DNA of 35,975 nucleotides. It comes from an uncultured virus (IMG/VR IMGVR_UViG_3300005239_003333). Its lineage: Duplodnaviria > Heunggongvirae > Uroviricota > Caudoviricetes. The stretch lies in the IMG/VR virus record IMGVR_UViG_3300005239_003333. The stretch is one strand, 5' to 3'. Every line of letters begins with the position of its first letter. Within the stretch, counting starts at the first letter, position 1. The notes beneath the pieces were generated by a model that was given only the letters and a program-made list of their open reading frames with translations, was not told the origin of the DNA and ran no database searches. Of the stretch, positions 1-35,975 are shown one piece after another. A program made the position numbers and the translations under genes.

Positions 1-58
1 TCTTTACCTTCTGATAAAACATCGAAATTACCCCATCTTGTTTTGTTATTTTTCCCAT
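1..58 (-). CDS. 5' part of a mannose-6-phosphate isomerase-like cupin (runs off the window; reading frame broken by an apparent 1-nt indel)
   Basis: One minus-strand frame reads KTRWGNFDVLSEGK, matching the R-x-W-G-x-[FY]-x-V-L start of ManC-type cupins. It is out of frame with both the ATG at 58 and the upstream cytidylyltransferase. Confidence 0.55.
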   Translation of the reverse strand, partial: MGKITKQDGVISMFYQKVK

Positions 59-483
59 CTTTGTAATATCCAACTACTACTATTTTTTTTATCTGCACCG
101 CCAACCCCGTATATAAAAATAATTTCTTTATCATCAAATAATTCAGGAGCTTCTTCCGGAACGTTACCTTGTTTTCTATCTCCGCCATTAGCAAATATAA
201 TCCTGTCAAAGGGGAATAACATTATAACATTCTTTATGGCCTCAATTGCGGTACCATCGTCATCATTAAAAAGAATGCAGTTATCAACGTATTTCAATGC
301 TGATACAATTTCAAATCTTTCTGCTAAAGGTAAAAAGTTTTTACCTTTTTTTCGTTCTAACCAAGAATCTGAATTAACCCCGACAATTAGTTTATCTCCT
401 AGCTTTCGAGCTGCTTTAAGATACGCTAGATGACCTGAATGTAATGGGTCAAATCCCCCTGTTACTAAAACTACTGTTTCCAT
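46..483 (-). CDS. Cytidylyltransferase-like nucleotidyltransferase (TagD/RfaE domain II family)
   Basis: TGGFDPLHSGH (HIGH-type motif), LIVGVNSD, FANGGDR, C-terminal KNSSS. Confidence 0.9.
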   Translation of the reverse strand: METVVLVTGGFDPLHSGHLAYLKAARKLGDKLIVGVNSDSWLERKKGKNFLPLAERFEIVSALKYVDNCILFNDDDGTAIEAIKNVIMLFPFDRIIFANGGDRKQGNVPEEAPELFDDKEIIFIYGVGGADKKNSSSWILQRWEK

Positions 484-1136
484 TTCTTTATAAAGTAGTC
501 TTGACCCTTGTAAAACTCTTCGTTAGGATTAGTCAATCCAGGACTCTGGTGAATTATAGGTATATCTACTACACCTATTTTAACACTGTTCCTATTACAC
601 TCAAGAGAGAAATCTAAATCGTAGTAGTGAAACTTAGATGGGTATGTTTCGTCAAACTTTACCTCGGCAGGCAGGTTATTAATATTAATCCCAATAAGAA
701 CGCCGTCAATAAGTAAACTCCTACTAGGTAGAGGACCAAAAGAAGTATAAGCATATTGCTCTCTCGTCCCGTGAGCCACACATCCTCTTTGGTCTTGCTT
801 TTCGGACATAAGATGCCATAAAGCTGGATTGCCAATTTTGCAGGATACAGCGCCAGCCACCCCAAACACGGGAAAACTTTCTGCGCTATCAATGAGACGA
901 GGGTAAAGATCAGCGCAATTAACATGGACATCATCGTGTATAAGAAGAGCAATGTCAATACTATTAGATCGAGCATGTTCAATAAACCCGTTGTAACACT
1001 TTTGTAAGCTTTCAGTATTATTTTCTTTAATGATAAGGTCTTTATATGCATAACAAGATTTATATTCTTTTATTGATTTATATATGTTCGTATCTTCTTT
1101 TTTACCTTTTGTAGCTGAGTATATTTTAATGTTCAT
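471..1136 (-). CDS. GT-A (family 2-like) glycosyltransferase
   Basis: SLQKCYN, LLIHDDV (DxD-like), GVAG, LIDGVLIG, FHYYDLDFSLE, IIHQSPG. Confidence 0.8.
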   Translation of the reverse strand: MNIKIYSATKGKKEDTNIYKSIKEYKSCYAYKDLIIKENNTESLQKCYNGFIEHARSNSIDIALLIHDDVHVNCADLYPRLIDSAESFPVFGVAGAVSCKIGNPALWHLMSEKQDQRGCVAHGTREQYAYTSFGPLPSRSLLIDGVLIGININNLPAEVKFDETYPSKFHYYDLDFSLECNRNSVKIGVVDIPIIHQSPGLTNPNEEFYKGQDYFIKKWKQ

Positions 1137-2229
1137 TTATATATGGTTCGATTTTTAAAGTATTAGAGATGTTCTTTATGAAATTATTTCTTTCACTATT
1201 ATTATAGAATACATATATCGAATATCCACCGTGACCTCCGCCGCAATATTTTTTTGCAATTGCAGTTCTAACTTCAGGCAGTTCATCCATGCCCTCTTTT
1301 ATCTGAACATCGTAGTTTAAATTTATACCATCACATAATAGTTTAAGATCGTTATTCTGAACACCAGTTGCTGCAATGCGACTTGCTCTTGCTAATGAAT
1401 TATAATCTCGTTCATAGCTACAATATGCCGGTGTATTATGTTGGTTACCAGTATAGAGTATAGCCATTTTACCTTTTAGTAAATCCCCGTTTCTCTTAAA
1501 AGATAGACGCGGAAGTTTACCGCTTTCCCATACACATAATCCTGTCTCTTTAATAATCGCAGGATCTTGCCAACCTACACCCATCTCCAATTCACTAGCG
1601 ACCCCGTCCTTCCCGTTTAATAGTGACCATGCACCGCTACCGCCTAGCCCAGATTGCTTTTCATAGGGCCAATTGGTTAAGGATACTTTAGGCGAAATTG
1701 CACAATTAACAATAAAGCCATCATCCCTAGAATGTTTAGGTACATCTAACCAACCACCAGCTAAATCTACTCTCATAGGCGCTTCGCTCGGTGTAAGGAT
1801 ATTATTAATAATAGAAGATGTAGATATGGGCTCAAATTTTGGCGGGGTTTTTGGTAAACATATATAATCTATACCTAATTCTTTACATATACTCTGCTTT
1901 TTAAATCTAAAGGTTTCATCATCTGTAGCAACTAAGATATCCGGAGATATTTCCTCTATTACATCTCTAAAATTTAGCCCCACATCATCAGTACTGCTTC
2001 CTATTACAACTTCATCAATAAAGGGTAGGTTGGATAATATTTCAATTTTATGTTCTATAGGTATACTAGGTCGTCTATTTTTATATAGATATAAAACTTC
2101 ATCAGAAGGTATACAAACTATTAATTCATCCCCTAATGCTTTAGCTTCTTTAAAAAATTGAATATGACCGGCGTGTAAGATATCGTAACAACCTGAAACA
2201 AATACTTTACTCATATTCTCCCCTATCAT
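1126..2229 (-). CDS. Bifunctional cytidylyltransferase-like domain plus GHMP sugar kinase (HddA-like); probable start at 2214 (MSKVFV)
   Basis: N-terminal SGCYDILHAGH and ISTSSII. C-terminal APMRVDLAGGWLD, SGLGGSGA, GWQDP, KYCGGGHGGY (GHMP motifs). Confidence 0.85.
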   Translation of the reverse strand: MIGENMSKVFVSGCYDILHAGHIQFFKEAKALGDELIVCIPSDEVLYLYKNRRPSIPIEHKIEILSNLPFIDEVVIGSSTDDVGLNFRDVIEEISPDILVATDDETFRFKKQSICKELGIDYICLPKTPPKFEPISTSSIINNILTPSEAPMRVDLAGGWLDVPKHSRDDGFIVNCAISPKVSLTNWPYEKQSGLGGSGAWSLLNGKDGVASELEMGVGWQDPAIIKETGLCVWESGKLPRLSFKRNGDLLKGKMAILYTGNQHNTPAYCSYERDYNSLARASRIAATGVQNNDLKLLCDGINLNYDVQIKEGMDELPEVRTAIAKKYCGGGHGGYSIYVFYNNSERNNFIKNISNTLKIEPYINEH

Positions 2230-2575
2230 CCATCTCAGGCTTATTATCTCTATTCCATATCATACCCATAATATTCCATAAAGCAGCACCCAAGTGGTCT
2301 TCGCTGTCATCTCCTGTAAAATCTTGCATTAAATGTCTCATTGTACTATCGTATAAAACAGAATGTTTCATACCCTTCTTCCAATTATTTTCACCATAAG
2401 CATCCGCCCCTTGTAAATATCTCATCATTACATCATTCAGTGCTTTATGGGGTACTAAACTCATCCGCATTTTACCGTCAGCATTATCTCGCTGCGCACC
2501 AGTTTCAAACTGACGAGGTGCACCTGTTATTTTTAAATCTTCCATATATTCTCTAAAATTAAATTCTTCGCTCAT
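2207..2575 (-). CDS. dATP/dGTP diphosphohydrolase-like protein (DUF5664 family)
   Basis: RQFETGAQRD..DGK.RMSLVP, GADAYGENNWKKGM, STMRHL, EDHLGAALWN. Start moved from TTG 2608 to ATG 2575, just after the upstream stop. Confidence 0.8.
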   Translation of the reverse strand: MSEEFNFREYMEDLKITGAPRQFETGAQRDNADGKMRMSLVPHKALNDVMMRYLQGADAYGENNWKKGMKHSVLYDSTMRHLMQDFTGDDSEDHLGAALWNIMGMIWNRDNKPEMDDRGEYE

Positions 2576-2576
2576 T

Positions 2577-3110
2577 TTAATTATATAATTTTTGATTAAA
2601 AAAATCAAGCCATAACTTTAGGGACTGATGCTTTAAAGCTCTTACTAAAGCCTCTTCTCCATCATATACATTAGGAATACTACGTTTTAAAATTATATCA
2701 CCTTCATCAACTGCCGGTATAACTCTATGCAAGACAGCTCCTATAATTGTGTGTTTAAGCTCAAAAGCACGCTTCTGCGGATCCTTACCTTTCAATTCTG
2801 GGTACTTTGTTATATAGCCTGGATGACCGTTAAAAATTTTATATTCCTCGCATATTGCTTTAGGTATAATATTCAACCACCCATGCAACGTAATAAAACA
2901 TTCGCTAGGATCGCCGAAAAGCTCCCTCAAGAACTTTACATTCTTTACATCTTTTTTAAGAATTCTAAACCCATAATTATCTATATCTACCCGACCGTCA
3001 ATTACTGACTCGTCTTTCTGATCATAATATACCGTATCTGGTACGTGTCCTTTTTCGATAAGATTCGCTATTTCAGAACCAGTTTGTGAAAATAATGCTA
3101 TATGTCTCAT
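2577..3110 (-). CDS. PurN-like formyltransferase (candidate DpdN-like 7-deazaguanine formyltransferase)
   Basis: IALFSQTGS, LHGWLNIIP, FNGHPG, LKGKDP, GAVLHRV, VDEGDII match formyl transferase N-domain motifs. Confidence 0.8.
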   Translation of the reverse strand: MRHIALFSQTGSEIANLIEKGHVPDTVYYDQKDESVIDGRVDIDNYGFRILKKDVKNVKFLRELFGDPSECFITLHGWLNIIPKAICEEYKIFNGHPGYITKYPELKGKDPQKRAFELKHTIIGAVLHRVIPAVDEGDIILKRSIPNVYDGEEALVRALKHQSLKLWLDFFNQKLYN

Positions 3111-3778
3111 AATGTTAAAAATGGTGAATCGTGAACAAAGCCATCAACAGAAGTTAGACCTTCATACGAAAAATTATACAAAATGCCCTCTTTTACCTCT
3201 CTATAATGCTTACCTTTTACAGAAGAAACGTTTGAGCCTTTATAAAATAAAGTACTACCCTGGCGCGCTATATAAATGTTCATCGTTTTTATATTAACTA
3301 TCCAGAGAGCGAAGGTACCTTTGAGTTGTTCGATAGTATATAATATATTTTGTATTTCGGATTCCGTATCTTCGCATGGTCCGTGTTTATATTCAAATTC
3401 ATCTAACATAGCAGGTATAATACTACTATCTACAGGGTTATCATGAGCCGGTAAATGTTTTTCGACTAGCTCTTTAAAGTTTGTAAGTACCCCATTATGT
3501 GCTACTATCCAGTCTCCATACCAGAATGGATGCGCTAGTTCTTCTTCCCATATCCTACCAGCTTCAGTAGGTGCTTGATTATGGCCTAGGTATATAAATC
3601 CTTTCTCACTAGGTAGAGTAGTTTTATTAAAGTCCACACCCCCCTCTTTCTTTACAACTTTATAGTTAGCATTATTATAGCAGTAAAATATACCAGTAGA
3701 GAAATTTCCCCGTTTTCTATTAGCTTGCTCTAATATTTCAAACGTACTTAAGTCATTACTACAATATATACCGCACAT
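3107..3778 (-). CDS. Stand-alone class II (Ntn) glutamine amidotransferase
   Basis: N-terminal MCGI (catalytic Cys2), RG, LGHNQAPT, AHPF, AHNGVLTN, VDS, GTFA. Confidence 0.85.
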   Translation of the reverse strand: MCGIYCSNDLSTFEILEQANRKRGNFSTGIFYCYNNANYKVVKKEGGVDFNKTTLPSEKGFIYLGHNQAPTEAGRIWEEELAHPFWYGDWIVAHNGVLTNFKELVEKHLPAHDNPVDSSIIPAMLDEFEYKHGPCEDTESEIQNILYTIEQLKGTFALWIVNIKTMNIYIARQGSTLFYKGSNVSSVKGKHYREVKEGILYNFSYEGLTSVDGFVHDSPFLTL

Positions 3779-3786
3779 ATATCTAT

Positions 3787-3814
3787 ATTATAGTAGAATT
3801 TCCTCAGAAATCAA
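3787..3814 (-). promoter_or_regulatory. Sigma70-type promoter for the amidotransferase operon
   Basis: TTGATT-N16-TATAAT-N8-ATG(3778). Confidence 0.7.
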
Positions 3815-3820
3815 TAAATA
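3815..3820 (+). promoter_or_regulatory. T4-type late promoter core TAAATA
   Basis: AATAAATA-TTATT-ATG(3826), matching the recurrent N5 spacing. Confidence 0.7.
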
Positions 3821-3825
3821 TTATT

Positions 3826-5207
3826 ATGAACTTGGTATCTTGGAACACAAAACAAATTATTAAAGAAAGTAATACAAACTATTTTCCCGGGCCCGGGGAA
3901 GATGCCGGCGGAAATGATGATTCTGATGCTGGTGAAGTTATGGATGAGCCGATTTTGGAAAGCATTTCTAAAACTCTTAAACCAGTTATGAACAAAATGA
4001 AGAAGTTGAATATAGGGCTGCCTTATAGAGACGCTCGTTTGTTCTTTTTTCAATTTTTAAAAGAGAAACATCCAAACTTAGTACCTCAAGGGTTCGAGAC
4101 AAAGAAGCCATCAGCAAAAGATGTTAATGCAATCGTAGGTCAAATCGCTATTGAACAGCCAGAATTACTTGATAAGTTCAGTCAAGAGTTCGAAGCTTAT
4201 TCTCAAGAACAGACAGATGCAGGGCTAGATAAGGTCTCACAATTTTTAAATGTAGCGGCTACAATGAGAACAGGTAAGGGTGTTAGACCATCTAGAACAG
4301 CTGCTGATACGCAAGGTTATGTTAAGAAAGATTATAGTAAATTAACAGCTCAAGAAATTGCAGACGCAACAACTGATGCTATTAAAAAGAAAGAAGCTGA
4401 TTTTGAAGCTGGTGATGATGTATCGGATGAAAAGCTTTTAGTTAAACAGTATCAAGTAGTGTTTTAACTAAGCTTGCTGATGAAGATTTAAATCCACAAG
4501 CTTTAAAAAATGTTGCCGATGCAATGACAAAGATTGAAACTTTGTCAAGATTTAAACAATTCTTAGAATACATTGGTAAGATGGAAGAGTATAGTGTTAT
4601 TCACCAGTACCTTTCTGATCAGTTGGATGTAATTGAAACTAATCTTGAAGATATGCAAACCGGGAAAGAAGATGCTGAAATGGAAGCTCAGGAAGGTAAT
4701 ATTCATGATGAAGTTAAACAAGATCCTCGCGAAGTTGATCCTACTACTGATGACATTGAACAAGCTAAAGAAGAAGATGCTGAGAGATGTCCCATTACTG
4801 GTAAATTGAGAAAGAGTGATGAAGAGACTACTCTAGATAATACCTCTTTAGAAGATCTATCAGTTCTTTCACCTGAAGAGTATGATATGGTACAGAATTT
4901 TGCAAATTTTGATGCTGATGATTGGGGATATAATAAACTTCAGAAATTTTACTTCCGTAAAAGAGAAGGCGGGGAAGATGAAGAAAAGGCTAAAAAAGAT
5001 CACGACGGTGATGGTAAGCTAGAATCATCAACAGCCGAATATATGGGCTCTAAAGATAAAGCTATTAAAGCTGCAATGAGTAAAGAAGAAGAGAATGAAG
5101 AAGTCGCTCTATCACCTCAAGAAGTTGCTAGACAGATGCTAATACAGCGACAAAATGAGATGCAAAATTATTATACTCAAGAAAGATTAAACCGTTACGG
5201 TTACTAA
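3826..5207 (+). CDS. Acidic late hypothetical protein, probably one gene (3826..4467 + 4524..5207) split by a 1-nt deletion near 4444; candidate internal head protein
   Basis: The frame of the second ORF is open from 4446 (TVSSSVLTKLADEDLNPQALKNVADAMTK). Adding one A in GTTAAACA fuses both ORFs. C-terminal KDHDGDGKLESSTAEYMGSKDKAIKAAM module. Confidence 0.65.
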
Positions 5208-5807
5208 GAAATAGGTCTACAATTATTATCTCTATAAACCGCCTCGAGCTTATCTTGCTGTTTATACTCTAAAGGGTCTTGTAATCCTGCATCTACAAAT
5301 CCTTTTAATCTAAGAGCACTACTCGCACTATTAGCATCGCATGGGTATTCTCCGGAATAACATGTATAAGTATCTGCAAAAATAACTCCTAGATCAACCC
5401 CATTTAGTATAATATCCTTCTTACTCATTTCAAGGAGAGGGGCTCTTACTCTTATATCTATTTCACGGTTTAATAAACAAATTTGATTCATCTTATCAAC
5501 AAACTGTACTGAACCATCCCAGTAACCGGCAAGACTGTCAGCTTCTGCTGCGCCGTACCATACTTCATCCGCTTTTAATTTTTCAGCATATGAAAGTAAA
5601 ATACTCAGAAACATCAAATTGCGGAACGGTACATATGATTTAGGCTGAGCTTCACCCATAATTTCTTTAACGTCAGGAGTCTCAATATCATTATTAGTCA
5701 GAGATGATGTATCTGCTATATCCTTAATATATTTTACATCAAGAACTTTATTAGTAAATGTTACGTCTGGAAAATGTATTTTAGCATTTACTAATTGCTT
5801 TCAGCTG
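5204..5807 (-). CDS. queC: 7-cyano-7-deazaguanine synthase QueC-like (5' part in N-gap; frameshifts near the contig edge)
   Basis: SSLT, SYVPFRNLMFLS, GYWDGS, APLLEMSKKDII, TYTCYSG, LRLKGF, DPLEY. The frame upstream of the called ATG continues (IKDIADTSSLTNNDIETPDVKEI). Confidence 0.85.
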
Positions 5808-6490
5808 NNNNNNNNNNNNNNNNNNNNNNNNNNNNNNNNNNNNNNNNNNNNNNNNNNNNNNNNNNNNNNNNNNNNNNNNNNNNNNNNNNNNNNNNNNNNN
5901 NNNNNNNNNNNNNNNNNNNNNNNNNNNNNNNNNNNNNNNNNNNNNNNNNNNNNNNNNNNNNNNNNNNNNNNNNNNNNNNNNNNNNNNNNNNNNNNNNNNN
6001 NNNNNNNNNNNNNNNNNNNNNNNNNNNNNNNNNNNNNNNNNNNNNNNNNNNNNNNNNNNNNNNNNNNNNNNNNNNNNNNNNNNNNNNNNNNNNNNNNNNN
6101 NNNNNNNNNNNNNNNNNNNNNNNNNNNNNNNNNNNNNNNNNNNNNNNNNNNNNNNNNNNNNNNNNNNNNNNNNNNNNNNNNNNNNNNNNNNNNNNNNNNN
6201 NNNNNNNNNNNNNNNNNNNNNNNNNNNNNNNNNNNNNNNNNNNNNNNNNNNNNNNNNNNNNNNNNNNNNNNNNNNNNNNNNNNNNNNNNNNNNNNNNNNN
6301 NNNNNNNNNNNNNNNNNNNNNNNNNNNNNNNNNNNNNNNNNNNNNNNNNNNNNNNNNNNNNNNNNNNNNNNNNNNNNNNNNNNNNNNNNNNNNNNNNNNN
6401 NNNNNNNNNNNNNNNNNNNNNNNNNNNNNNNNNNNNNNNNNNNNNNNNNNNNNNNNNNNNNNNNNNNNNNNNNNNNNNNNNNNNNNNNNN

Positions 6491-12188: not shown

Positions 12189-13394
12189 CTAGTTATACCT
12201 ATTGAGATTTACTCTTTTCGAATCACCTACATCATATTGATAAAGCTCTGAATAGCAGTCTATATTTCTATCATCCTCTAACCATCTGTTATCTACATAT
12301 TGTGATGCCTTTCTAGATAAAGCTTTATAACGCTTTCTATCTTGCAGAGTATGTTCAATACGGGCTATCATTTCATCGCCAGTTTTAAATTTAATTGGCG
12401 CGTGTTCATATGTGCACATGTCTTGGCAAGCGATAGGTAAACCTAAGGCGCATGCTTCAATATGTTTTAAATCAGATTTAGAGCGATTGAAAATATTATC
12501 TTGTAAAGGAGCTACAATCATATTAACATTTAAATCGTAAAGCTTTTGACTATATTCGTAAAGACGTACCCATGGATGAAATTCAATCTTACCAGCATCA
12601 ATTAAGGGCCTTAGGGGTAGGGGAAAAGCACCTAGAAAAACCCATTGATATTTATCGACTGTCTTAGCTATAACTTCAACAACATGCTGAAAATCGTCTC
12701 TTTGTTTAACTCTATTATCTACATCGAAATGTGCACCAGAACCAGCATAAAGTATCCGCGGCTTTTTCTTATTCTTATCATAACTTTCCATTGTACGAGT
12801 TATATTAGACTTATTACCAAGCCAAAATTTAGGCATAAAGTTCGGTATAACTGTTACGTTTTTATTACCTGTCTTTTCTTTGTAATAATCTCTCATAAAC
12901 GGGCAGGTAACTGTAATTTCATCACACATAGCCATCATCTCTTGTGACGCCTGTCTTATCTTTGGATCAACAAAAGCTGATTTATACTTGTTATAATCAG
13001 GTATATCTTCGTGAAAGCATATATCATCAATTTCATAAATTAATCTAAATTTATTAGTATCAGCCATCTTTCTTAGGAACTTAACAAACTCTAATTGTTG
13101 TGGTGTTGCTTGTCTCTGAATGCGTACTCCTTTAACTGCGCCGTAATATCTCGGATCAACATTCATAACAGTGGTGCCATGGACAACAGCTTTATTATGA
13201 GCGTTTAATACTTGCTCCGGCCATATCATTCTCCAGTGACCACACCCGGAATAATCTGCATAATAATTTAAAAATCTCGGTAAACCCGTCTCCGGGGTCC
13301 CTGGATTTACTACAACAGGTGCCGGCTTGTTTATAATACCTGGCGGTTTTTGTCCCATCGGTAGGTTTTGAAATGGTTTATTACCTAAAATCAT
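12189..13394 (-). CDS. GT-B fold (GT4-like) glycosyltransferase
   Basis: SGCGHWRMIWP, IQRQ, IYEIDD, VIPNF, ILYAGSGAH, APLQDNIFNRSKSDLKHIEACALGLP. Confidence 0.8.
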   Translation of the reverse strand: MILGNKPFQNLPMGQKPPGIINKPAPVVVNPGTPETGLPRFLNYYADYSGCGHWRMIWPEQVLNAHNKAVVHGTTVMNVDPRYYGAVKGVRIQRQATPQQLEFVKFLRKMADTNKFRLIYEIDDICFHEDIPDYNKYKSAFVDPKIRQASQEMMAMCDEITVTCPFMRDYYKEKTGNKNVTVIPNFMPKFWLGNKSNITRTMESYDKNKKKPRILYAGSGAHFDVDNRVKQRDDFQHVVEVIAKTVDKYQWVFLGAFPLPLRPLIDAGKIEFHPWVRLYEYSQKLYDLNVNMIVAPLQDNIFNRSKSDLKHIEACALGLPIACQDMCTYEHAPIKFKTGDEMIARIEHTLQDRKRYKALSRKASQYVDNRWLEDDRNIDCYSELYQYDVGDSKRVNLNRYN

Positions 13395-19420: not shown

Positions 19421-19852
19421 ATGGATACGGGTATATGGAAAGTTTACGGTGAAATACCGGCAGACGCTTTTGGGTTTATATACGAGATTACTAATATTAC
19501 TAATAGTAAAAAATATATTGGTAAAAAACAGATGGTGCGTAAAATTAGACGTCAACCTCTAAAGGGTAAGAAGCGTAAGCGTATAGATTTTGTTGAAAGT
19601 GACTGGAAAACCTATACGGGCTCGTCAGATGCTCTTAATATAGACATAGCCACATTAGGTCTAGATCAATTTGTATTTAAAATTTTAAAATTTTGCGGTA
19701 GTAAGTTCGAACTCTCTTATTTTGAAGCTAAAATGCAGTTTGAAAAAGATGTATTATTGAGTGAAGACTATTATAATGGTATTATAAACTGCAGAATAGG
19801 TAAAGCTCCGAAACTGTTCTTGGAACAGTATTATAATCAAGATAATGGCTAA
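19421..19852 (+). CDS. GIY-YIG family nuclease (Seg-like catalytic domain only)
   Basis: GFIYEITN..KKYIGKK, ESDWKTYTGSS, conserved E (YFEAK) and YYN. Confidence 0.85.
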   Translation: MDTGIWKVYGEIPADAFGFIYEITNITNSKKYIGKKQMVRKIRRQPLKGKKRKRIDFVESDWKTYTGSSDALNIDIATLGLDQFVFKILKFCGSKFELSYFEAKMQFEKDVLLSEDYYNGIINCRIGKAPKLFLEQYYNQDNG

Positions 19853-26437: not shown

Positions 26438-27397
26438 ATGGCAATTGTCCCGTTAGCTAAAGATGTCAGTGTTAAAACGATCCGTGATGTTATAAACCAA
26501 AAAGCAATCATGCTTGGTCAAGTGAGATCTCGTGGCACATCCTATACCAACTATGGTTACGATAAAAAGACTGGTTATGTACAGGCTCATATAAAGAATA
26601 TATCAGCTAGTACTATTAACATTACCGCCACATTAGAAAAAGCTACCGGCAATGTACAGGAAACTTTTAATTTAGCAGCAGGAGCTACAAAATTTTTGGA
26701 TTATCAAGGGTTACGTGGTAAGGTAGGAGGATATACTAAAGCACGTTGGACGGGAGGTAACCCTGCTGCGTCATATACCGGTAATCGAGATCATGATTTA
26801 TCATTTGTAGAGAACGCAGGTGGTGGTCGATCAGCGAGCGTCAATAATATTAATATACATACTAAAAGCTCGAAACATTACTACCCCGTTGTGTTTGGAA
26901 ACAATTATTCTGTCGTTAATATTAGTCATACAAATAACTGGAATATTAAAGACGGTATAAATCAACCACCAATTCTAGAAGGCACTCCAAATTCAATTGA
27001 TAATAAGTTAAGTAATTGGAGAGGTGCGCAAGTTATGCAAGGGACGGCCGTCATACGGTCTTCTAGGTTAGGTTATTATGGCGATGATAAAAAAGAGGGT
27101 TATATATCTGTCAGGCTTGATCCCCCTGCGTTCAGTACTGGTCCGATTACTGTTTCTATACGTAATAGCACTATAAACAAAGATATAACTAAGACTATAT
27201 CTAGTAGCAACAGTACTACCTTTACATTTAATAATTTATTAGGCGCGCGTACATTTAAAATATATATTAAAGACACTTTAACAGGTACAAGTATGATGCA
27301 GACATATGGAATAAGCCAAGTATCATATAACCAATCTAAAACCCATAAATCATACTCATTTAATGGCCCTGATCGCTTCCTAGCTTTCACTTTTTAA
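26438..27397 (+). CDS. S/T/N/G-rich beta-strand protein, possible virion surface/fibre protein
   Basis: Late promoter; composition typical of structural proteins; no catalytic motif seen. Confidence 0.55.
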   Translation: MAIVPLAKDVSVKTIRDVINQKAIMLGQVRSRGTSYTNYGYDKKTGYVQAHIKNISASTINITATLEKATGNVQETFNLAAGATKFLDYQGLRGKVGGYTKARWTGGNPAASYTGNRDHDLSFVENAGGGRSASVNNINIHTKSSKHYYPVVFGNNYSVVNISHTNNWNIKDGINQPPILEGTPNSIDNKLSNWRGAQVMQGTAVIRSSRLGYYGDDKKEGYISVRLDPPAFSTGPITVSIRNSTINKDITKTISSSNSTTFTFNNLLGARTFKIYIKDTLTGTSMMQTYGISQVSYNQSKTHKSYSFNGPDRFLAFTF

Positions 27398-27415
27398 GAC
27401 GATAAATATTTTATT

Positions 27416-28120
27416 ATGATATGTGATATAATTAAAGCTATCAACAGCAAGGTTAAAATCTGTCTCAAAGATTCATCAGAATACTATTTTATTGAAAGTT
27501 TAACGCTTATAGATGGTAATTCTATAGAGTTTGAAGATTCTCTTAGTAGGAAAAAAATTACTTTACAAAATATCCTGGTTGAGGAAATGAGTATAATAAC
27601 TTTCGGTATTAATACAGTACCTACTCAATCAATTATTAATGATATTAATGACGGTGTTAATGATTTTTTTACAGAAAATCAAGAAAGTCATAATATATCT
27701 AATAAGGAGTTTGATGCTCTAGTAGATAAATGTAGAGAATATATTGAGTATTTTAATGATAGCATTGTGCTGATAAAAAAAGCTGTTGTAGAAAATAATA
27801 CAGTAGATTTAGAACGTCTGAAAGCTTTAGGCTCTAATAGGGTAATATCATTACCGTTAGCAACTATGGAGGAAAATTTATATATTAGAAATTTATACTG
27901 GAAACTTATAGATACAAAATTAAACGAAGCGATTGCTGAAATTGATAGTAGTTTAGAGGGTATCGATGATGAAGATTTTATAGAAGAAGCTAAAATTATA
28001 AAAAGTGATCTTCAACAAAATGTATTAGATTTTGAAGAGCATATGAAGGGGGTTACATACGATAGGTTGTTTAATCAATGGCCTACTCTTTTGAATCCGT
28101 CTCCATTTAGCAATGTCTAG
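27416..28120 (+). CDS. Acidic hypothetical protein
   Basis: 234-aa ORF after GATAAATA-N7-ATG, ending WPTLLNPSPF. Confidence 0.65.
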   Translation: MICDIIKAINSKVKICLKDSSEYYFIESLTLIDGNSIEFEDSLSRKKITLQNILVEEMSIITFGINTVPTQSIINDINDGVNDFFTENQESHNISNKEFDALVDKCREYIEYFNDSIVLIKKAVVENNTVDLERLKALGSNRVISLPLATMEENLYIRNLYWKLIDTKLNEAIAEIDSSLEGIDDEDFIEEAKIIKSDLQQNVLDFEEHMKGVTYDRLFNQWPTLLNPSPFSNV

Positions 28121-28697
28121 TATAATTATAGTAGGCAACGGCGAGGGCGTCTTAGATAAAAAAAATGGCGATTTAATTGATAGTTTCGAAACAGTCGTTC
28201 GTTTAGGAAGATATGTTACAGACGGGTTTGAGGATTTTGTAGGTTCAAAAACAGATATTATATCAACAATTTATTGGAAGTTAGATATAGATAGGCTTGC
28301 TAAGACAAAGGTTATATTGAATGTGCCTCTGCATTTACAGGCTAATTTTTTAGAAAGTGAAGAATATATAGAGGATACACTCTCGTCATATAAATCTAAT
28401 ATAATATATTTAAATAAAGAAGAAGATAAAGAGCAGTTAATTAAAGAGTATACTGATATTTTACCGCCTTTTAGAGATATACAAAATATTAATTTTTCAC
28501 TAGGATTTAAAACTTTATTTTTTATAAAAAAACTTTTTCCAGAAAAAAAGATATTTACAACAGGCTTTGACTTTTTTAAAACCGGGTGGTATTGGGATGT
28601 AAATCATAATAGAGACGATACAAATATGCATCCATATACCTGGGAGAGACTTTGGTATGCGAGAATGAAAAGTATGGGCAACATAAATGAAATCTAA
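28113..28697 (+). CDS. GT29 (sialyltransferase-like) glycosyltransferase
   Basis: Sialylmotif L-like IIVGNG..L...GDLIDSFETVVR...GFEDFVGSKTD, S-like SLGF...TGFDFF, VS-like HPYTWE. Confidence 0.75.
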   Translation: MSSIIIVGNGEGVLDKKNGDLIDSFETVVRLGRYVTDGFEDFVGSKTDIISTIYWKLDIDRLAKTKVILNVPLHLQANFLESEEYIEDTLSSYKSNIIYLNKEEDKEQLIKEYTDILPPFRDIQNINFSLGFKTLFFIKKLFPEKKIFTTGFDFFKTGWYWDVNHNRDDTNMHPYTWERLWYARMKSMGNINEI

Positions 28698-29577
28698 TTA
28701 CATAATATCTGTAAAAAGCTCTGGGCTATGCTTTAATATTATGCGGCTTATTATCTTAACTAAATTAGCTAATGATTTTGGGCGTAAATTAATATTTTTA
28801 ACTAAACCGGATCATATACCTATTCTAAAAAAATTTAATAATAAATGTACTTTAATACCGTATGTTAGAGGGCATACAGACCAGTTTAATAATTTTACTA
28901 GAAATAAAAATATACATATTGTATATGATTTAAAATATATACGGTTTTTAAAATCTAACTATTTAAATAAAATTTTTGGTGATTTAAAGATTAATGAATT
29001 TGCTTATGTTAATGGATGCATGTATGATATCACAAATATATTAAACAAGCATATTATTGTTGATTATAATGATGGTCAGTTTGATAGTAAGATTATAAAC
29101 TCTATCGATATACCGAGCATTAGAATTAATAAAAGTTTAATAAAATATCCGAGCGATATGTTAACTATTAACGTTAAAATTAACGATCCTAATAATACTA
29201 GAATTTACGATCTCTGGGACGAAATAATACCTAAATTGCAGAAAGATTATATGAAAGATATTTTACTAATATCCGGTAATAACGATATAAAACAATACCT
29301 CGGTAAGAAATACAATTGTATTTTTGAGAATTTAGATACAGAAACTAACTTTTCTAACGTTAGAGGAAATGATATTGTTAGGGGAAAAGCAAATACAATA
29401 TATCGTGATTTAGTAACATGTGCACATACCCGCTTTATACCCTTTATAGAGCTAAGAGAAAAATATAAAGATATTTTACACCGATACGAGGATTTAAATT
29501 TCGTCCTTCAAAAAGAAGAAAAATTTGATATCTTGGTTGAATATATGCGTAATCGCTTTCTTACTCTGGAACCTTAA
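28687..29577 (+). CDS. Hypothetical protein, weakly fucosyltransferase-like
   Basis: N-terminal SGLCFNI, ILLISGNNDIK, IYRDL; shares a motif with 31562..32539. Confidence 0.45.
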   Translation: MKSNYIISVKSSGLCFNIMRLIILTKLANDFGRKLIFLTKPDHIPILKKFNNKCTLIPYVRGHTDQFNNFTRNKNIHIVYDLKYIRFLKSNYLNKIFGDLKINEFAYVNGCMYDITNILNKHIIVDYNDGQFDSKIINSIDIPSIRINKSLIKYPSDMLTINVKINDPNNTRIYDLWDEIIPKLQKDYMKDILLISGNNDIKQYLGKKYNCIFENLDTETNFSNVRGNDIVRGKANTIYRDLVTCAHTRFIPFIELREKYKDILHRYEDLNFVLQKEEKFDILVEYMRNRFLTLEP

Positions 29578-30151
29578 ACTCGGTTTCAAATGTACAGTAG
29601 TTTACCATTACTGCACGTCTTCTCTCTTTTATATCAACCGACTCTAAACCATGCCATGTATCGTTGTTCGGATAAAAGTAAAATCCTTCATTGTTAATAT
29701 ATGGTACAGTCTTAACATACTCTTTATTCTTATCATATAGAGCTGTACCAATACTCTCGGACTCTTCAGTATTATTAAGATAAACGAGAAAACTCATTAT
29801 CTTTTCGCTTATATCGACATGAGGCTCAAGCCAGGACTTTTCACTATCTTCTATAAGTTCGATACGCAAATAGTTACCTCGTATCTTAGTATTAGATTCT
29901 TCCTCAAACATATCTATTATCTCATCTCTTAAGAAAAAATCTACTGTTCTATTTAAAGCAGAATTGCTCCACATATTTTCTTTATCAACAAAGAATCTAT
30001 TATTATTTGTAGTACGCGCGCCCCCAAGAGAAGCTGTATGATTGCTCATCTTGATTTTATCAATATCAGCTAACTCCTTTTCGCAAAAAAATTCTGTAAA
30101 CGTATAATGCTTAAAAGGGTCAACGTTACACTGCTTGTTTCGAAATTTCAT
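29561..30151 (-). CDS. 2OG-Fe(II) oxygenase
   Basis: DPFKH, LEPHVD (HxD), LVYLN, GTALY, TWHG, RRAVMVNY. Confidence 0.85.
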   Translation of the reverse strand: MKFRNKQCNVDPFKHYTFTEFFCEKELADIDKIKMSNHTASLGGARTTNNNRFFVDKENMWSNSALNRTVDFFLRDEIIDMFEEESNTKIRGNYLRIELIEDSEKSWLEPHVDISEKIMSFLVYLNNTEESESIGTALYDKNKEYVKTVPYINNEGFYFYPNNDTWHGLESVDIKERRRAVMVNYCTFETEFKVPE

Positions 30152-30674
30152 TTATTTTATTATATATTATATCTATATATTTATCAAGATACTTCTTTAT
30201 ATCGCATTCATTTTTATGTGATGTTACAATATCATGATCTTTTATAATTATAGGTATATGATGACTTTCATCGCGAAGAGTCATTATAATAAAAACAAAT
30301 AGTTGTGAAAGGACGTTATTTCTATTACAAATAAATAAAATATTACTCTCTTCTTTAGATAGCTTATGTATAAACTCACTTTGTGTACCTATAATTTGCT
30401 CTCTAAGCTTACGTCTAAGATCTACATCACTATCCATCCTATCAATAGGTGGTATATTTTTTATACGTAAGAGATCTTTATTATTAAAAATATCTTTACA
30501 TTTTATATTATTACATAGTAGTGATAATCTATGGCATGAATTTAGTAAATTACACTCTGTCAAGTTAATTACAAATTTAATATTATATTTTATAAGGTTG
30601 GATAGTTCATTATCGACATCTTGATCAAAGTTTTTATATGTTTCGATATATAAATTTCTAAATATTTGCTTCAT
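30126..30674 (-). CDS. Degenerate dual-specificity phosphatase-like protein
   Basis: LIKYNIKFVINLT and NILFICNRNNVLSQ align with DSP motifs but lack the CX5R arginine. Confidence 0.45.
   Translation of the reverse strand: MKQIFRNLYIETYKNFDQDVDNELSNLIKYNIKFVINLTECNLLNSCHRLSLLCNNIKCKDIFNNKDLLRIKNIPPIDRMDSDVDLRRKLREQIIGTQSEFIHKLSKEESNILFICNRNNVLSQLFVFIIMTLRDESHHIPIIIKDHDIVTSHKNECDIKKYLDKYIDIIYNKINEISKQAV
30159..30187 (-). promoter_or_regulatory. Sigma70-type promoter, leaderless geometry, for the oxygenase
   Basis: TTGATA-N17-TATAAT-N7-ATG(30151). Confidence 0.65.
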
Positions 30675-30707
30675 TGGATAAGTTTGTTTTCCCCTTTAAA
30701 TATTTAC

Positions 30708-31565
30708 GTGATAGCAAATGATAAGCAAGATATTATTGATTTGAGAAAGCGGCAAATCGCTGAAGATATCGAAAAGACTCCAATGAAGGCGTTGCAGAGT
30801 ATTACTATCAACCCTACGGAGCTTTGTAATAGAACATGTCACTTCTGCCCACGTAGTGATCCAAAAGTATACCCTAATCAAAATTTACATATTACTGAGG
30901 ATACTGTTCGAAAATTGAGCTCTGAGCTTAAGTTAAATAACTACTCGAACCGAGTCGGGTGGTCTGGTAATGGCGAGCCTTTATTAACTAAAGATTTTTA
31001 TAAATTAGTTAAAATAATAAGCAGTGAAAATCCTCAGCTAAGAGTACATGAAATTAATACTAACGGGGATAAAATAAAAGAAGGTACAATTGAAAAGATT
31101 TATGACGCTGGTATTAACCATATCGTCGTAAGTTTATATGATGGAGATGAGCAATTAGAAAAATTTAGTAAAATGTTTGAAGGGTATGATTCGGATATGT
31201 TCACTTTAAGAAAAAGTTATTACCATTCTAACAATTTTTCTGGATTTACCAATAGAGCTGGCGCAGTAAAAGTTAATACTGAACTGCTAAAAGATAATAT
31301 AAAAAATAAATGTTATTTACCATTCTACAAACTCTTTATTGATTGGAATGGTGATCAAATATTATGTTGCGAGGATTGGTTTAAGCTATCAAAAAATAAA
31401 CTAAATATTAACACTCACTCATTAAAGGAAATATGGGAATCTGAATTTTTAAACAAATATCGAACACATCTTAAGGCTGGAAAGAGAGATTTAGCGGTTT
31501 GTAATAGATGTAATATTCATGGAGAGAAAGTTGGAAAACAATATACGGAAAATTTTAAATTATGA
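30708..31565 (+). CDS. Radical SAM protein with SPASM/twitch domain
   Basis: CNRTCHFC (CxxxCxxC), SGNGEPLL, INTNGD, NRAG, CYLPF...CCEDW...CNRC. Start reassigned to GTG 30708 by TAAATA-N5-GTG. Confidence 0.9.
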   Translation: MIANDKQDIIDLRKRQIAEDIEKTPMKALQSITINPTELCNRTCHFCPRSDPKVYPNQNLHITEDTVRKLSSELKLNNYSNRVGWSGNGEPLLTKDFYKLVKIISSENPQLRVHEINTNGDKIKEGTIEKIYDAGINHIVVSLYDGDEQLEKFSKMFEGYDSDMFTLRKSYYHSNNFSGFTNRAGAVKVNTELLKDNIKNKCYLPFYKLFIDWNGDQILCCEDWFKLSKNKLNINTHSLKEIWESEFLNKYRTHLKAGKRDLAVCNRCNIHGEKVGKQYTENFKL

Positions 31566-32539
31566 TTTATTTCGCGCAAGCTGTTAGAGAAAGAAGAACA
31601 TATACTGATTTTATGATCGGTTTAATTATGTTAACTCAATATTATAAAAAATATAAAAAAACGTTTTATATAAAAGAAGATATATATGATGTTTTTGAAA
31701 GTAATAAATGTGACTTCTATAATATTGAATCAAATAATTATTATAAACTTTTTTATAAGATGAGAATCAATGCTGTTAAGAACGTAAGGGAAGATCCTAT
31801 GCATCGCGACGATACAATGTTAAAAAATCTTTATATAAAACGTTTGGCCAAAAAAGAAAATATAAATGATATGTATTTAAATGGTCTTAAGAAGGGTGAC
31901 AATTTTTTACTTGATAATACTGTTAAATTTTACTATCTCGATAAGCATGATAGAGGTCTTCTACATTATGAAGATAATAAATCTAAAGCTAAGAATGATA
32001 GTAGTTTAAAGATAAAAATTAAAACACCTTATGTGGATGAAAAAATAAAAGAGTTCACTAAAGATAAGTGGTTTATAACCTTACCTACTTTTCGTATAAA
32101 TGAAAAGGAAGATATAAAAATGCTAGATATATTCTGTGAATTTATAACAAAAGAAAAGGATTATAAAAATATTATCCTAATTAGCGGTAGTAATGAGTAT
32201 AAGGATCACTTTTGTAGTAAATTTAATTTCGAAACTACACATATTTATGATGATGGCTTTACCAGTAAAAAACTAGGTTATCGGAAGCAAGAAGCTGGGT
32301 TTACGTGTAAAGAAAAAGGAAGTTTAGAAAGTGTATTGGCAGACTCCTTATATATACAAAATTCAGAAGCTGGTTATATAGATTTTATGCAGGTCTATAA
32401 TCATCATAGAGATGAGTTGTTAAAATATGGTATGGATAAATTTAGTAATTCTTATTATGATACTTTTATAACAAGAAATAAAAGTCAGGCTATTGATATT
32501 ATTGGTCGCGAGTTGAAGCAGAATACAGTTTTTTATTAA
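31562..32539 (+). CDS. Hypothetical protein, weakly fucosyltransferase-like (paralogue of 28687..29577)
   Basis: IILISGSNEYKDHFCSKFNF, SVLADSL; ATGA overlap with the radical SAM gene. Confidence 0.45.
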   Translation: MIYFAQAVRERRTYTDFMIGLIMLTQYYKKYKKTFYIKEDIYDVFESNKCDFYNIESNNYYKLFYKMRINAVKNVREDPMHRDDTMLKNLYIKRLAKKENINDMYLNGLKKGDNFLLDNTVKFYYLDKHDRGLLHYEDNKSKAKNDSSLKIKIKTPYVDEKIKEFTKDKWFITLPTFRINEKEDIKMLDIFCEFITKEKDYKNIILISGSNEYKDHFCSKFNFETTHIYDDGFTSKKLGYRKQEAGFTCKEKGSLESVLADSLYIQNSEAGYIDFMQVYNHHRDELLKYGMDKFSNSYYDTFITRNKSQAIDIIGRELKQNTVFY

Positions 32540-33198
32540 TAATTTAACCACTTATCAGCATAATCGCAATGCTCATACTCTGGCAACCACGGACCACCTT
32601 CAGTATAGTGCAGAGCCATTGGCTCCCCGTCCTGAGGCTCTTTGTACCAATCGACTAACCAATTCCATTGTAACGGTAAAGCCCCAATCTCTGTATCTTC
32701 TAACCATTTAAATCTATGTAAGAATGCACCGGACTGATTGTTAATTGTAAGAGGGTTTAAAGTTTTATTTTTTGGGTGTTCATTATTAAAAATCATTAAA
32801 CTGCTCCAGTTCTTACGAGGCCAAGATGTTTGAGGTTTACCGTCCATCTTCTGCAAATTAGTTGGATTGTACTCATGTTTGCAACATTGTATAGCATACT
32901 TCGGGTCATATAAATCTAATAATCTATCGATAGATTCAAGAAAAAGAAAATCTCCGTCGAGGAATACGCTTATACCTTTATAATCACTTTGATAAGGTAC
33001 AAAAAATCTAGCAAATGCAAATTGTGTAGATTCATATGGGTCTTTTTTTCTACCATAATTTTCTACACTATTATAATTTATAGGTTGTATATCAAGCTCG
33101 TACCTGTTATTCTTATCTGTTATGCTCCTTATACACCTATCGTATGCAATTTTATGAGGGTCGTCTAACCCAACAAATATTTTAATTTTCTTTTCCAT
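32536..33198 (-). CDS. GT8-like nucleotide-diphospho-sugar transferase
   Basis: IFVG, STQFAFARFFVP, FLDGDFL (DxD), PRKNWSSLMIFN, LHRFKWL, WNWLV, HYTEGGPW; start ATG 33198. Confidence 0.85.
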   Translation of the reverse strand: MEKKIKIFVGLDDPHKIAYDRCIRSITDKNNRYELDIQPINYNSVENYGRKKDPYESTQFAFARFFVPYQSDYKGISVFLDGDFLFLESIDRLLDLYDPKYAIQCCKHEYNPTNLQKMDGKPQTSWPRKNWSSLMIFNNEHPKNKTLNPLTINNQSGAFLHRFKWLEDTEIGALPLQWNWLVDWYKEPQDGEPMALHYTEGGPWLPEYEHCDYADKWLNY

Positions 33199-34266: not shown

Positions 34267-34292
34267 GTTAACTTGCTATCATTCATACAAGC

Positions 34293-34300
34293 TATAAATA
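34293..34300 (+). promoter_or_regulatory. T4 late promoter TATAAATA
   Basis: Perfect consensus, N8 before ATG 34309. Confidence 0.7.
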
Positions 34301-34308
34301 TAATTCTT

Positions 34309-34503
34309 ATGGAAGATATTAAATTAAACATTGAAAAACTAGCTGAAAATCACGGACATTTTTCTGCTGACGTAGAAAATTTCCTTGAAAAGGGTAATAA
34401 ATCCGCCGCTACACGCGCGCGGAAAGCATTGTTGGAGATCTCTAAACTCTGTAAAGACGTAAGAAAGCAGATTCAAGAGATTAAGAACAGTGGAGGAGCA
34501 TAA
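34309..34503 (+). CDS. Hc1-like (histone H1-like) small protein
   Basis: EKGNKSAATRARKALLEISKLCKDVRK matches the KGNKAAxxRxR motif of the Hc1 N-terminal domain. Confidence 0.75.
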   Translation: MEDIKLNIEKLAENHGHFSADVENFLEKGNKSAATRARKALLEISKLCKDVRKQIQEIKNSGGA

Positions 34504-35174: not shown

Positions 35175-35975
35175 TTACCGTAATCCGGTCGATTCGAATA
35201 CATCTCTAGCAACACCTGCTGAAAAGCCTCCTTCTACGCCTTTAACTATAACTGATATAGCATTATGGCTATGAAGACTCTCATTATGAGATGCTACAAT
35301 CTTAAAGTCCTTAATACGAGACTCACTACTAAGCTTTTCATACATTAAACGTACTGCATCTTCTACAAACTTTAGATTAGAACCGTTAAGTTCAGCAAAC
35401 GCTTGCTCATCTTCTCTCTTAACCATAACTTGAGTCTCAGTTTGTAGAGCAGCTAAGCATAACTCTTGTATATCTTCTATCCATAGCATATCGTCGAACT
35501 TAACACTAACTCTTGCAACACTTCGTTGACTATGAGGTACTGTAGCGCGATTACGATACTTCTCAGCATGTTCACTCAATTCAAAACTACAAGGGCATGC
35601 AGATGAATATACAAAATCAAAGTGAATATACTTCTTAAATTCACCATCTTTAGTAAGATCACCTTCAAATACTACGTCATAATATTGATAACCGTCTAAA
35701 CCACTACGTAAACTAGTTTGTTTGATAGGATATGAAATCTTAAGCATAATTCTTGAGTCAAATACCTTTAGATTTTCTCTATATGATTCTAGTACATCTT
35801 TAATATTATCAATACTAAATAGATCATCCTTATGATCGTAAAAACTTCTCATAATACGAGACATATTAATACCCTTCTTATGAGCTTCTAAACTAACACT
35901 ACCCGTTACACTAGTTTCGAGATTAATAGTCTTACCATCTCTCTTTTTATATGTAAGTGGTAACTAAAATTGTGT
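35175..35975 (-). CDS. folE2: GTP cyclohydrolase I type B (FolE2), 5'-truncated by the window edge
   Basis: LETSVTGSVSLEAHKKGINMSR (frame open upstream of the called ATG), SACPCS, PHSQRS, VKREDEQAFAELN, KFVEDAVR, ESLHSHNA. Confidence 0.93.

Follow-up and report, generated by a model that had tools for sequence, protein, structure and literature searches.

The closest described system to the one examined here is that of Flavobacterium phage immuto. According to the available text of Cui, Hutinet et al. 2023 (PMC10516641), immuto DNA has no deoxyguanosine (dG) and carries fdPreQ1, the formylated form of preQ1, at 345,000 per million nucleotides, the phage has genes for DpdA3, FolE and QueD/E/C/F, and the gene for YP_010114479.1 was renamed DpdN. 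Here we analyse the operon at positions 1–5807 of a 35,975-base stretch of uncultured viral DNA (IMG/VR record IMGVR_UViG_3300005239_003333; ‘the window’ refers to this whole stretch), in which a DpdN-like formyltransferase gene stands among genes for a glutamine amidotransferase, a glycosyltransferase and sugar activation. A first-pass annotation, made from the sequence alone, had proposed that the operon encodes a new DNA hypermodification. We favour a different reading: the window is probably a piece of an uncultured marine T4-like phage belonging to a clade with DpdA3/DpdN-type 7-deazaguanine DNA modification, an estimate that covers the reading as a whole, the fdPreQ1 pathway together with a separate modular sugar layer. 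We found no published description of the operon in open-access papers or on bioRxiv, the literature to which all negative statements of this kind below refer. Four stretches of the window are masked as N, and one of them (5808–6490) borders the operon and queC region.

The strongest link to immuto is the formyltransferase. When compared with 50,697 phage records, it matched only four, all of them immuto variants and all at the DpdN gene; in pairwise alignment it is 40% identical to immuto DpdN over 173 residues (E = 3e-39), and both proteins have the block NGHPG...YPELKGKDPQ as well as VDEG. The suspicion of the first-pass annotation that the protein is a DpdN relative is thus confirmed: among cultured phages it is closest to the published DpdN, and it groups with DpdN and not with other phage formyltransferases. 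Together with FolE2, which does lie at the far end of the window as first annotated, and QueC, this bears out the assignment of the region as a 7-deazaguanine DNA-modification locus (Table 1). At the nucleotide level, a blastn search of 1–5807 against the same phage records gave no match.

Relatives were collected in three scans of IMG/VR, in which 7, 256 and 206 relatives were confirmed and provided 7, 80 and 80 loci, respectively; related stretches in IMG/VR number at least 206–256. We examined 154 loci and the window, kept those with a full glutaminase (the amidotransferase) and a full copy of the glycosyltransferase GT221, and removed identical DNA, yielding 63 distinct stretches; one locus with both formyltransferase and kinase-nucleotidyltransferase (L147/L228), slightly below the length filter, was left out of the 63. 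The tree used below was obtained by a quick search on the joined glutaminase and GT221 proteins (63 rows). Gene order, whose conservation the first-pass annotation had proposed to check, is the same in the relatives along a backbone of DNA polymerase, small genes, UvsX, QueC, an opposite-strand acidic gene, glutaminase, a variable middle, GT221 and gp41 helicase. The closest relative, the 61-kb G001, is collinear with the window, and most proteins in common are 90–98% identical. The window itself encodes T4-type replication proteins (DNA polymerase, UvsX, UvsY, gp46/47-like proteins, a gp55-like sigma factor and helicases), and its DNA polymerase is approximately 31% identical to those of cultured cyanomyoviruses.

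The relatives also supply much of the remaining pathway that the first-pass annotation had suggested looking for. Beyond FolE2 (350 amino acids in G001), G001 carries QueD and a QueE-like gene. In G006 and G007, tblastn with immuto proteins revealed adjacent genes for a DpdA3-like protein, a P-loop kinase and a bimodular QueF, the DpdA3-like proteins being 49–51% identical to immuto DpdA (E = 1e-71 to 3e-75) and the QueF proteins 46–48% identical to that of immuto. The three genes are present in each of the four relatives with a completeness of at least 88% – G006 (88%), G007 (100%), and G011 and G012, both with terminal repeats – at a locus approximately 80 kb from the operon in each, and also in G015; a search with the G006 DpdA, which located the gene in G011, G012 and G015, did not find it in the fragments G013 and G014. 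A null result with the TGT profile PF01702 was set aside as void because this profile also misses the genuine immuto DpdA, hence the use of tblastn. A 490-residue G001 protein between folE2 and queD (L009:3324–4796), considered as a DpdA candidate, matches nothing in Pfam, PHROGs, NCBIfam or the PDB sequences, has no counterpart in G006 and G007, and was set aside as uninformative.

In the pathway that we propose, FolE2, QueD, QueE and QueC would make preQ0, with ammonia for QueC probably coming from the stand-alone glutaminase; QueF would reduce preQ0 to preQ1; a DpdA3-type transglycosylase would swap guanine for the modified base; and the DpdN orthologue would formylate the aminomethyl group, giving formyl-preQ1. 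The first-pass annotation had argued that an amidotransferase and a formyltransferase in one operon imply a derivative beyond those described. Since the relatives carry QueF and DpdA3, the known route from preQ0 through preQ1 to formyl-preQ1 can account for the formyltransferase, and this argument is not supported. Three further genes, the P-loop kinase beside DpdA, a xanthine-phosphoribosyltransferase-like gene elsewhere in G007 and a nucleoside 2-deoxyribosyltransferase-like gene between the GNAT and MazG-like genes of G007 (L153:8338–8823; PF15891, E = 3.3e-32), were seen in passing, and might fit a base swap on nucleotides before replication.

The acyltransferase is a swappable part of the operon. 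Among the 63 stretches, 47 have a GNAT acetyltransferase in this slot, 14 a formyltransferase and two neither; the distribution takes nine changes on the tree, four to five of them forced by well-supported branches, and near-identical backbones carry either gene. G011 has no acyltransferase between glutaminase and GT221 and encodes a GNAT protein between DpdA and the kinase, which is DpdN’s position in immuto; therefore, the acyltransferase belongs with DpdA and QueF and not with the glutaminase or GT221. The slot GNAT and the G011 GNAT beside DpdA are 19% identical. From the GNAT variants one would expect acetyl-preQ1 as a base in DNA; we did not find such a base in print.

Profile searches (Pfam, PHROGs and NCBIfam) resolve the operon as one minus-strand run with overlapping stops and starts, in the order amidotransferase, formyltransferase, PF18909 protein, kinase-nucleotidyltransferase, GT221 and small nucleotidyltransferase. 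The coupled run of the first-pass annotation therefore stands, and queC upstream is not a member of it: the plus-strand acidic gene intervenes, with a promoter-like site ahead of the amidotransferase and a terminator-like site behind queC. The promoter-like sites are consensus matches only (37 found in total as compared to 24.2 expected), as is the terminator-like hairpin at 5202–5190 after queC. The cupin gene placed at the window end owes its identification to its L001 orthologue (108 amino acids; PF01050, E = 2.9e-20; TIGR01479 positions 362–460), with the first 10 of the 24 residues inside the window matching that orthologue; the 69-residue open reading frame (ORF) at 3–209 is a different frame within the nucleotidyltransferase gene. 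The acidic protein (isoelectric point about 4.5) is encoded on the opposite strand between queC and glutaminase in most relatives and has no family match in Pfam or PHROGs.

Table 1. Features of the window and of related loci discussed in the text.
Feature	Position	Strand	Remarks
Cupin, first 24 codons (mannose-6-phosphate-isomerase C-terminal type)	2..73	-	Cut by window edge; identity from L001
Small nucleotidyltransferase, 145 amino acids, RfaE domain II/TagD-like	46..483	-	PF01467, E = 2.3e-16; phrog_7878
GT221, predicted GT-A glycosyltransferase	471..1136	-	PF13712, 32 bits (cut-off 27)
HldC/TagD-like nucleotidyltransferase (N-terminal) with GHMP-type anomeric sugar kinase (C-terminal)	1126..2229	-	PF01467, GHMP motifs
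MazG-like all-alpha nucleoside triphosphate (NTP) pyrophosphohydrolase (PF18909/DUF5664)	2207..2608	-	70.6 bits, E = 1.2e-19
DpdN-type formyltransferase (predicted preQ1/dPreQ1 N-formyltransferase)	2577..3110	-	PF00551, 34.1 bits (cut-off 26.1)
Stand-alone class II (N-terminal nucleophile, Ntn) glutamine amidotransferase	3107..3778	-	GATase_6/7/4, GlmS/PurF N-terminal domains
Sigma-70-like promoter match	3787..3814	-	TTGATT, 16-base spacer, TATAAT; 10/12; directly upstream of amidotransferase start
Acidic protein gene, split into 3826–4467 and 4524–5207	3826..5207	+	One 447-residue ORF in L001
queC, 3′ two thirds, one-base frameshift near 5797–5803	5204..5807	-	PF06508, E = 1.9e-28; TIGR00364 positions 52–194 of 201
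Short UDP-glucose-dehydrogenase-like protein, 284 amino acids	6897..7751	-	PF03721, PF00984; without PF03720 C-terminal UDP-binding domain
Putative glycosyltransferase, 401 amino acids, between DNA polymerase and gp46-like genes	12189..13394	-	phrog_7162, E = 1.1e-23
folE2 (GTP cyclohydrolase IB), 5′ end cut by window edge	35175..35975	-	PF02649, E = 9e-56; NF010200, 220 bits (cut-off 215)
GNAT acetyltransferase in relatives	L003:9219–9692 and 46 other relatives		In DpdN’s place
GNAT beside DpdA (G011)	L266:2295–2840

The visible part of queC spans 5204–5800, the 5′ end lying within the masked run. Compared to L001 and L003 the gene is one base short at 5796–5807, which creates an in-frame stop at 5801–5803 and puts the PP-loop part and the rest into different frames; relatives have an intact 248-residue QueC with an SGGMDS loop. 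Contigs of runs X1 and X6, from two studies, agree with the window at the queC frameshift, and in the contigs of two runs one more A follows 4443, which would give the acidic gene a single frame; parts of 3800–5807 lacking contig cover in runs X1–X3 were left out of this comparison. The split of the acidic gene is therefore a one-base difference in an A run. The queC frameshift, on the other hand, looks real, because the contigs agree with the window there while the same runs differ from it at 4443; in this sub-lineage, queC may be either split or a genuine pseudogene.

QueC, a PP-loop enzyme, requires ammonia, and the amidotransferase has no synthase domain of its own. Its Pfam scores are slightly under the cut-offs; as a class II glutaminase it is catalytically intact, with Cys2, R23-G24-N25 (RGNF motif), N95-G96 (HNG motif) and D117, the residues of catalysis and of the glutamine site, unchanged across 14 orthologues. 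One half of the fused family phrog_10428 is matched by the glutaminase and the other by QueC, and in L261 the glutaminase directly follows queC, still as a separate gene; in the window the two are 1.4 kb apart, not fused, with the opposite-strand gene between them. A predicted glutaminase–QueC complex scored 0.55 as compared to 0.00 in three controls, which amounts to weak support: of 157 solved complexes 116 attained the mark, as did 2 of 215 mismatched pairs, with 18 of the 157 and both mismatches scoring 0.60 or less. The three runs had at least 68% of contacts in common, with partner pLDDT (predicted local distance difference test) of at least 87. On all of this evidence, we read the glutaminase as the partner of QueC, with the chances about evenly balanced. 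Vibrio phage glutaminases from amidoligase/ATP-grasp clusters, which match the amidotransferase weakly, were rejected as a source of function transfer, being too distant (24–30% identity).

A glutaminase next to QueC also raises the question of archaeosine (G+): the split pair could make G+, and the formyltransferase or GNAT could acylate its amidine to an undescribed acyl-G+ base. Fused Gat-QueC is linked to dG+ in phages in the available text of PMC10516641, and the window glutaminase weakly matches the Gat part of a Providencia phage ‘archaeosine synthase’ (27% identity, E = 2e-4). However, a bona fide bimodular QueF stands beside DpdA3 in every complete relative, the relatives’ QueC passes the equivalog cut-off for an ordinary preQ0 synthase (TIGR00364, 162 bits as compared to 150), and the immuto DpdN works without any glutaminase, making acyl-G+ extremely improbable.

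The MazG-like enzyme scores well above the PF18909 cut-off of 27 bits and matches the dATP/dGTP pyrophosphohydrolase family phrog_801 (E = 2.1e-17); its true start is probably the ATG at 2575. In our reading, it would plausibly lower the dGTP pool, aiding complete replacement. The PF18909 domain is common to this protein and to the MazZ-type dATP/dGTP diphosphohydrolase of 2-aminoadenine phages; neither PurZ nor DatZ is among the annotated window genes, no search having been aimed at either. Homologues occur in 378 phage records, mostly of actinophages, and the gene was detected in 44 of the 63 stretches.

GT221 is conserved in every relative, at a fixed place between uvsX and the gp41 helicase gene, and is co-transcribed with the helicase. 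Its PF13712 score, 32 bits in the window, rises to 62.6 bits for the G011 orthologue. The AlphaFold model (pLDDT 91.4) gave 219 Foldseek matches at E ≤ 0.001, those listed being GT-A-type, and the best PDB fold matches are to majastridin (2nxv and 2qgi; template modelling scores 0.73 and 0.70), followed by other GT-A transferases; an acidic DxD-type HDD motif is invariant. A profile search of PDB sequences gave chance-level hits only, and tblastn against the 50,697 phage records gave no match. We found 271 homologues: the 120 listed are all metagenomic proteins without an organism name, and the Atlas clusters are viral. Taken together, the models and homologues mark GT221 as a conserved phage-only GT-A glycosyltransferase.

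The sugar-activation genes around it are optional. Of the 63 stretches, 7 have the kinase-nucleotidyltransferase, 10 the small nucleotidyltransferase and 8 the cupin, the first two genes requiring three and six changes on the tree, respectively; the small nucleotidyltransferase (TIGR02199 rfaE_dom_II, E = 4.7e-21, under its cut-off) and the cupin lie downstream of GT221. In L105, the slot upstream of GT221, taken by the kinase-nucleotidyltransferase in those 7 stretches, holds GDP-mannose 4,6-dehydratase (Gmd; TIGR01472, 416.7 bits as compared to the cut-off of 415) and a GDP-fucose-synthase (Fcl)-like protein. Since GT221 is flanked on both sides by optional manno-type sugar-nucleotide genes, the cassettes probably supply its donor, with hosts doing so when cassettes are absent. 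We thus see the sugar genes as a separate modular layer, in which a conserved GT221 would be combined with optional donor-making cassettes: here the kinase-nucleotidyltransferase of bacterial origin, another nucleotidyltransferase and a cupin resembling mannose isomerase, and in L105 Gmd and the Fcl-like reductase.

The kinase-nucleotidyltransferase has thousands of homologues, with full-length identity of 55–58% to proteins of Verrucomicrobiota, Planctomycetota, Bacteroidales and others, and by these comparisons is of bacterial origin. Its GHMP motifs are conserved in the alignment, and its model matches the heptose-1-phosphate adenylyltransferase HldC (5xf2, 30% identity) as well as GHMP kinases, foremost WcbL (4usm), a heptokinase, and FKP’s fucokinase part (9iip). 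In 80 bacterial loci, the most frequent neighbours are UDP-glucose dehydrogenase (26), NAD epimerase (25) and WecG/TagA transferase (22), and FucU occurs in 4; within 8 kb, none of the 80 has a homologue of GT221, the MazG-like enzyme, glutaminase, formyltransferase, GNAT, cupin or QueC. The first-pass annotation had tied the sugar genes to the deazaguanine pathway, and had named as evidence against this tie sugar-gene homologues that occur apart from que genes and serve the cell surface. The tie is not supported: nothing found here connects the sugar with the deazaguanine, and the genes are optional, repeatedly gained or lost, and have bacterial homologues in surface-glycan loci without que genes; the bacterial loci, none of them with a que neighbour, come close to the evidence so named.

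These results bear directly on whether the operon is one pathway for a new hypermodified base, either a sugar-bearing 7-deazaguanine or a formamido-sugar on DNA. In its favour, translational coupling links all the genes in a single early-type operon that lies among replication genes, GT221 and the amidotransferase always neighbour queC in the clade, and the glycosylated preQ0 natural products huimycin and dapiramicin, as presented in the available text of a 2026 bioRxiv preprint, show that the scaffold takes a sugar. Yet fdPreQ1 has neither a hydroxyl nor an amine left free to take a sugar; the formyltransferase has an orthologue, DpdN, in immuto, a phage with neither amidotransferase nor GT221; the acyltransferase of G011 sits with DpdA, away from GT221; the sugar-activation genes are found in only 7–10 of the 63 stretches; the natural-product transferases are, in the same available text, of the PF13439 type and GT221 is of the PF13712 type; and we found no paper on glycosylated deazaguanine DNA. 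We therefore regard the single pathway as very doubtful.

The bacterial neighbourhoods suggest instead that GT221 and its cassettes could have a target other than DNA, for instance virion proteins or the host envelope, and be mere neighbours of the deazaguanine genes. The kinase-nucleotidyltransferase comes from surface-glycan loci, related nucleotidyltransferases are common in marine T4-like cyanophages beside epimerase and carbamoyltransferase genes, and other glycan genes lie elsewhere in the genome. What speaks against such a target is the position of GT221, fixed inside the early replication operon in 63 of 63 stretches, an unusual place for a gene of virion glycosylation or of the envelope, with no structural gene nearby; we consider a non-DNA target possible, if on the unlikely side.

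The same position between uvsX and the helicase gene could be taken to favour glycosylation of phage DNA at a base other than the deazaguanine, a second, independent modification of the T-even kind with swappable donors. No T4 late-promoter motif lies in 1–5807 (weak evidence, given three matches in the window as compared to 12 expected), donor cassettes vary among close relatives as an arms race would predict, and a second conserved putative transferase adjoins the DNA polymerase gene; this 401-residue protein is 64–82% identical in relatives and has no Pfam or PDB sequence match. However, a hydroxymethylase was not found: among the four records searched, PF00303 matches one (G007) and PF02511 none. 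The G007 match (L192:1498–2397; 269 bits) is thymidylate-synthase-like, with Asn at the dUMP-specifying position (PFN motif), and WCH replaces what we take to be the usual residues before the catalytic Cys; we read the gene as a thymidylate synthase, with a dUMP hydroxymethylase as the alternative. Furthermore, GT221 is near neutral (median isoelectric point 6.9), so that isoelectric points give no signal for DNA binding, has the GT-A fold and has no known acceptor. Glycosylation at another base is, in our estimate, distinctly unlikely. Somewhat less so, but still unlikely, is that GT221 glycosylates the genome or nucleotide precursors on top of a complete replacement of G by formyl-preQ1, with donors from the swappable cassettes, in which case the invariant glutaminase–GT221 pair might act as a unit.

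Several observations weigh against the formyl-preQ1 pathway with a separate sugar layer that we favour. Neither DpdA3 nor QueF was seen in the 36-kb window or in the 61 kb that represent G001, its closest relative (tblastn with immuto DpdA), so that the search for the missing genes succeeded for queD and a queE-like gene close by, and for dpdA and queF in more distant relatives only. These are all GNAT-bearing, as are the complete relatives checked, none of which has the formyltransferase. With queC frameshifted, this step may be missing in the phage or depend on the host’s QueC. Many phages that carry no que genes have members of the MazG-like family, and the gene went undetected in 19 of the 63 stretches. 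The basis of the glutaminase–QueC pairing is a weak complex score, and passes as weak as this are wrong more often than right unless there is a good prior; finally, glutaminase and GT221 form an invariant adjacent pair even in the most distant relatives, L261 and L263, and could act together in another reaction.

Other genes were noted along the way. The UDP-glucose-dehydrogenase-like protein was seen in few relatives only; as its L001 orthologue is short as well (281 amino acids), the short form is not due to assembly. An island at 26438–33234 encodes a GT29-like (sialyltransferase-like) N-terminus, a 2OG-Fe(II) oxygenase, a radical SAM/SPASM enzyme and a second such enzyme under a masked run; two of its genes are only 45–48% identical to G001, most flanking genes being about 90% or more identical, and it looks like a hypervariable glycan or peptide-modification region. 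The window also encodes a chlamydial-type histone-like Hc1 protein (34273–34503; PF07432, E = 6.7e-19) and a SegE-like GIY-YIG homing endonuclease (19421–19852). Beyond the window, G001 encodes curli secretion proteins resembling CsgF and CsgG, together with a FecR-like protein and an adenylate/guanylate cyclase of the CHASE2 kind (L009:9423–14503), with an Fe/Mn superoxide dismutase nearby.

On the reading favoured here, the DpdA3/DpdN system, known from one cultured Flavobacterium phage, would extend to a large uncultured clade of marine and lake T4-like phages, with the acyl group on the modified base encoded in a hot-swappable cassette. Heavily modified DNA can bias sequencing and restriction-based methods, which matters for marine viromics. 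GT221, with donor genes exchanged among close relatives, makes a tractable system for the study of transferases in replication operons; if it does glycosylate the genome, this would be a second sugar-based DNA-modification layer in a very abundant marine phage clade.

Compared to known systems, the novelty lies in acyl and sugar cassettes of modular build and in a conserved, as yet unexplained pair of glutaminase and GT221; no new base is demonstrated in the window. As in the HldE, HddA-HddC and Fkp systems, a sugar anomeric kinase and a nucleotidyltransferase are joined in one protein. HldE differs in having a PfkB kinase at its N-terminus and a cytidylyltransferase-like domain at its C-terminus, the order being reversed here with a short GHMP kinase, and Fkp differs in having another pyrophosphorylase in place of the N-terminal HldC/TagD-type transferase. 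Like this locus, the T4 map has a transferase and an NTP pyrophosphohydrolase among the replication genes near uvsX and gp41; unlike in the T-even DNA glucosyltransferase systems with their dCTPase and dCMP hydroxymethylase, no hydroxymethylase was found here, GT221 has a predicted GT-A fold and the modified base would be a deazaguanine. The huimycin and dapiramicin loci of actinomycetes likewise combine preQ0 core genes with a glycosyltransferase, as far as the available preprint text describes them, but their products are free small molecules and no DNA is involved. The Gat-QueC fusions of dG+ phages and Crenarchaeota pair a class II glutaminase with a QueC PP-loop enzyme, as phrog_10428 reflects, whereas here these are two genes in separate transcription units, and the relatives’ QueF points to preQ1 and not to G+. 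Finally, immuto and the relatives have the same order of DpdA, P-loop kinase and QueF. Our system differs from that of immuto in belonging to a T4-like phage, in spreading the pathway over three loci, in using FolE2 and not FolE, in placing the acyltransferase, which alternates with a GNAT, in the queC operon and not beside DpdA, and in the added glutaminase, MazG-like enzyme and GT-A transferase, of which immuto lacks the glutaminase and the transferase.

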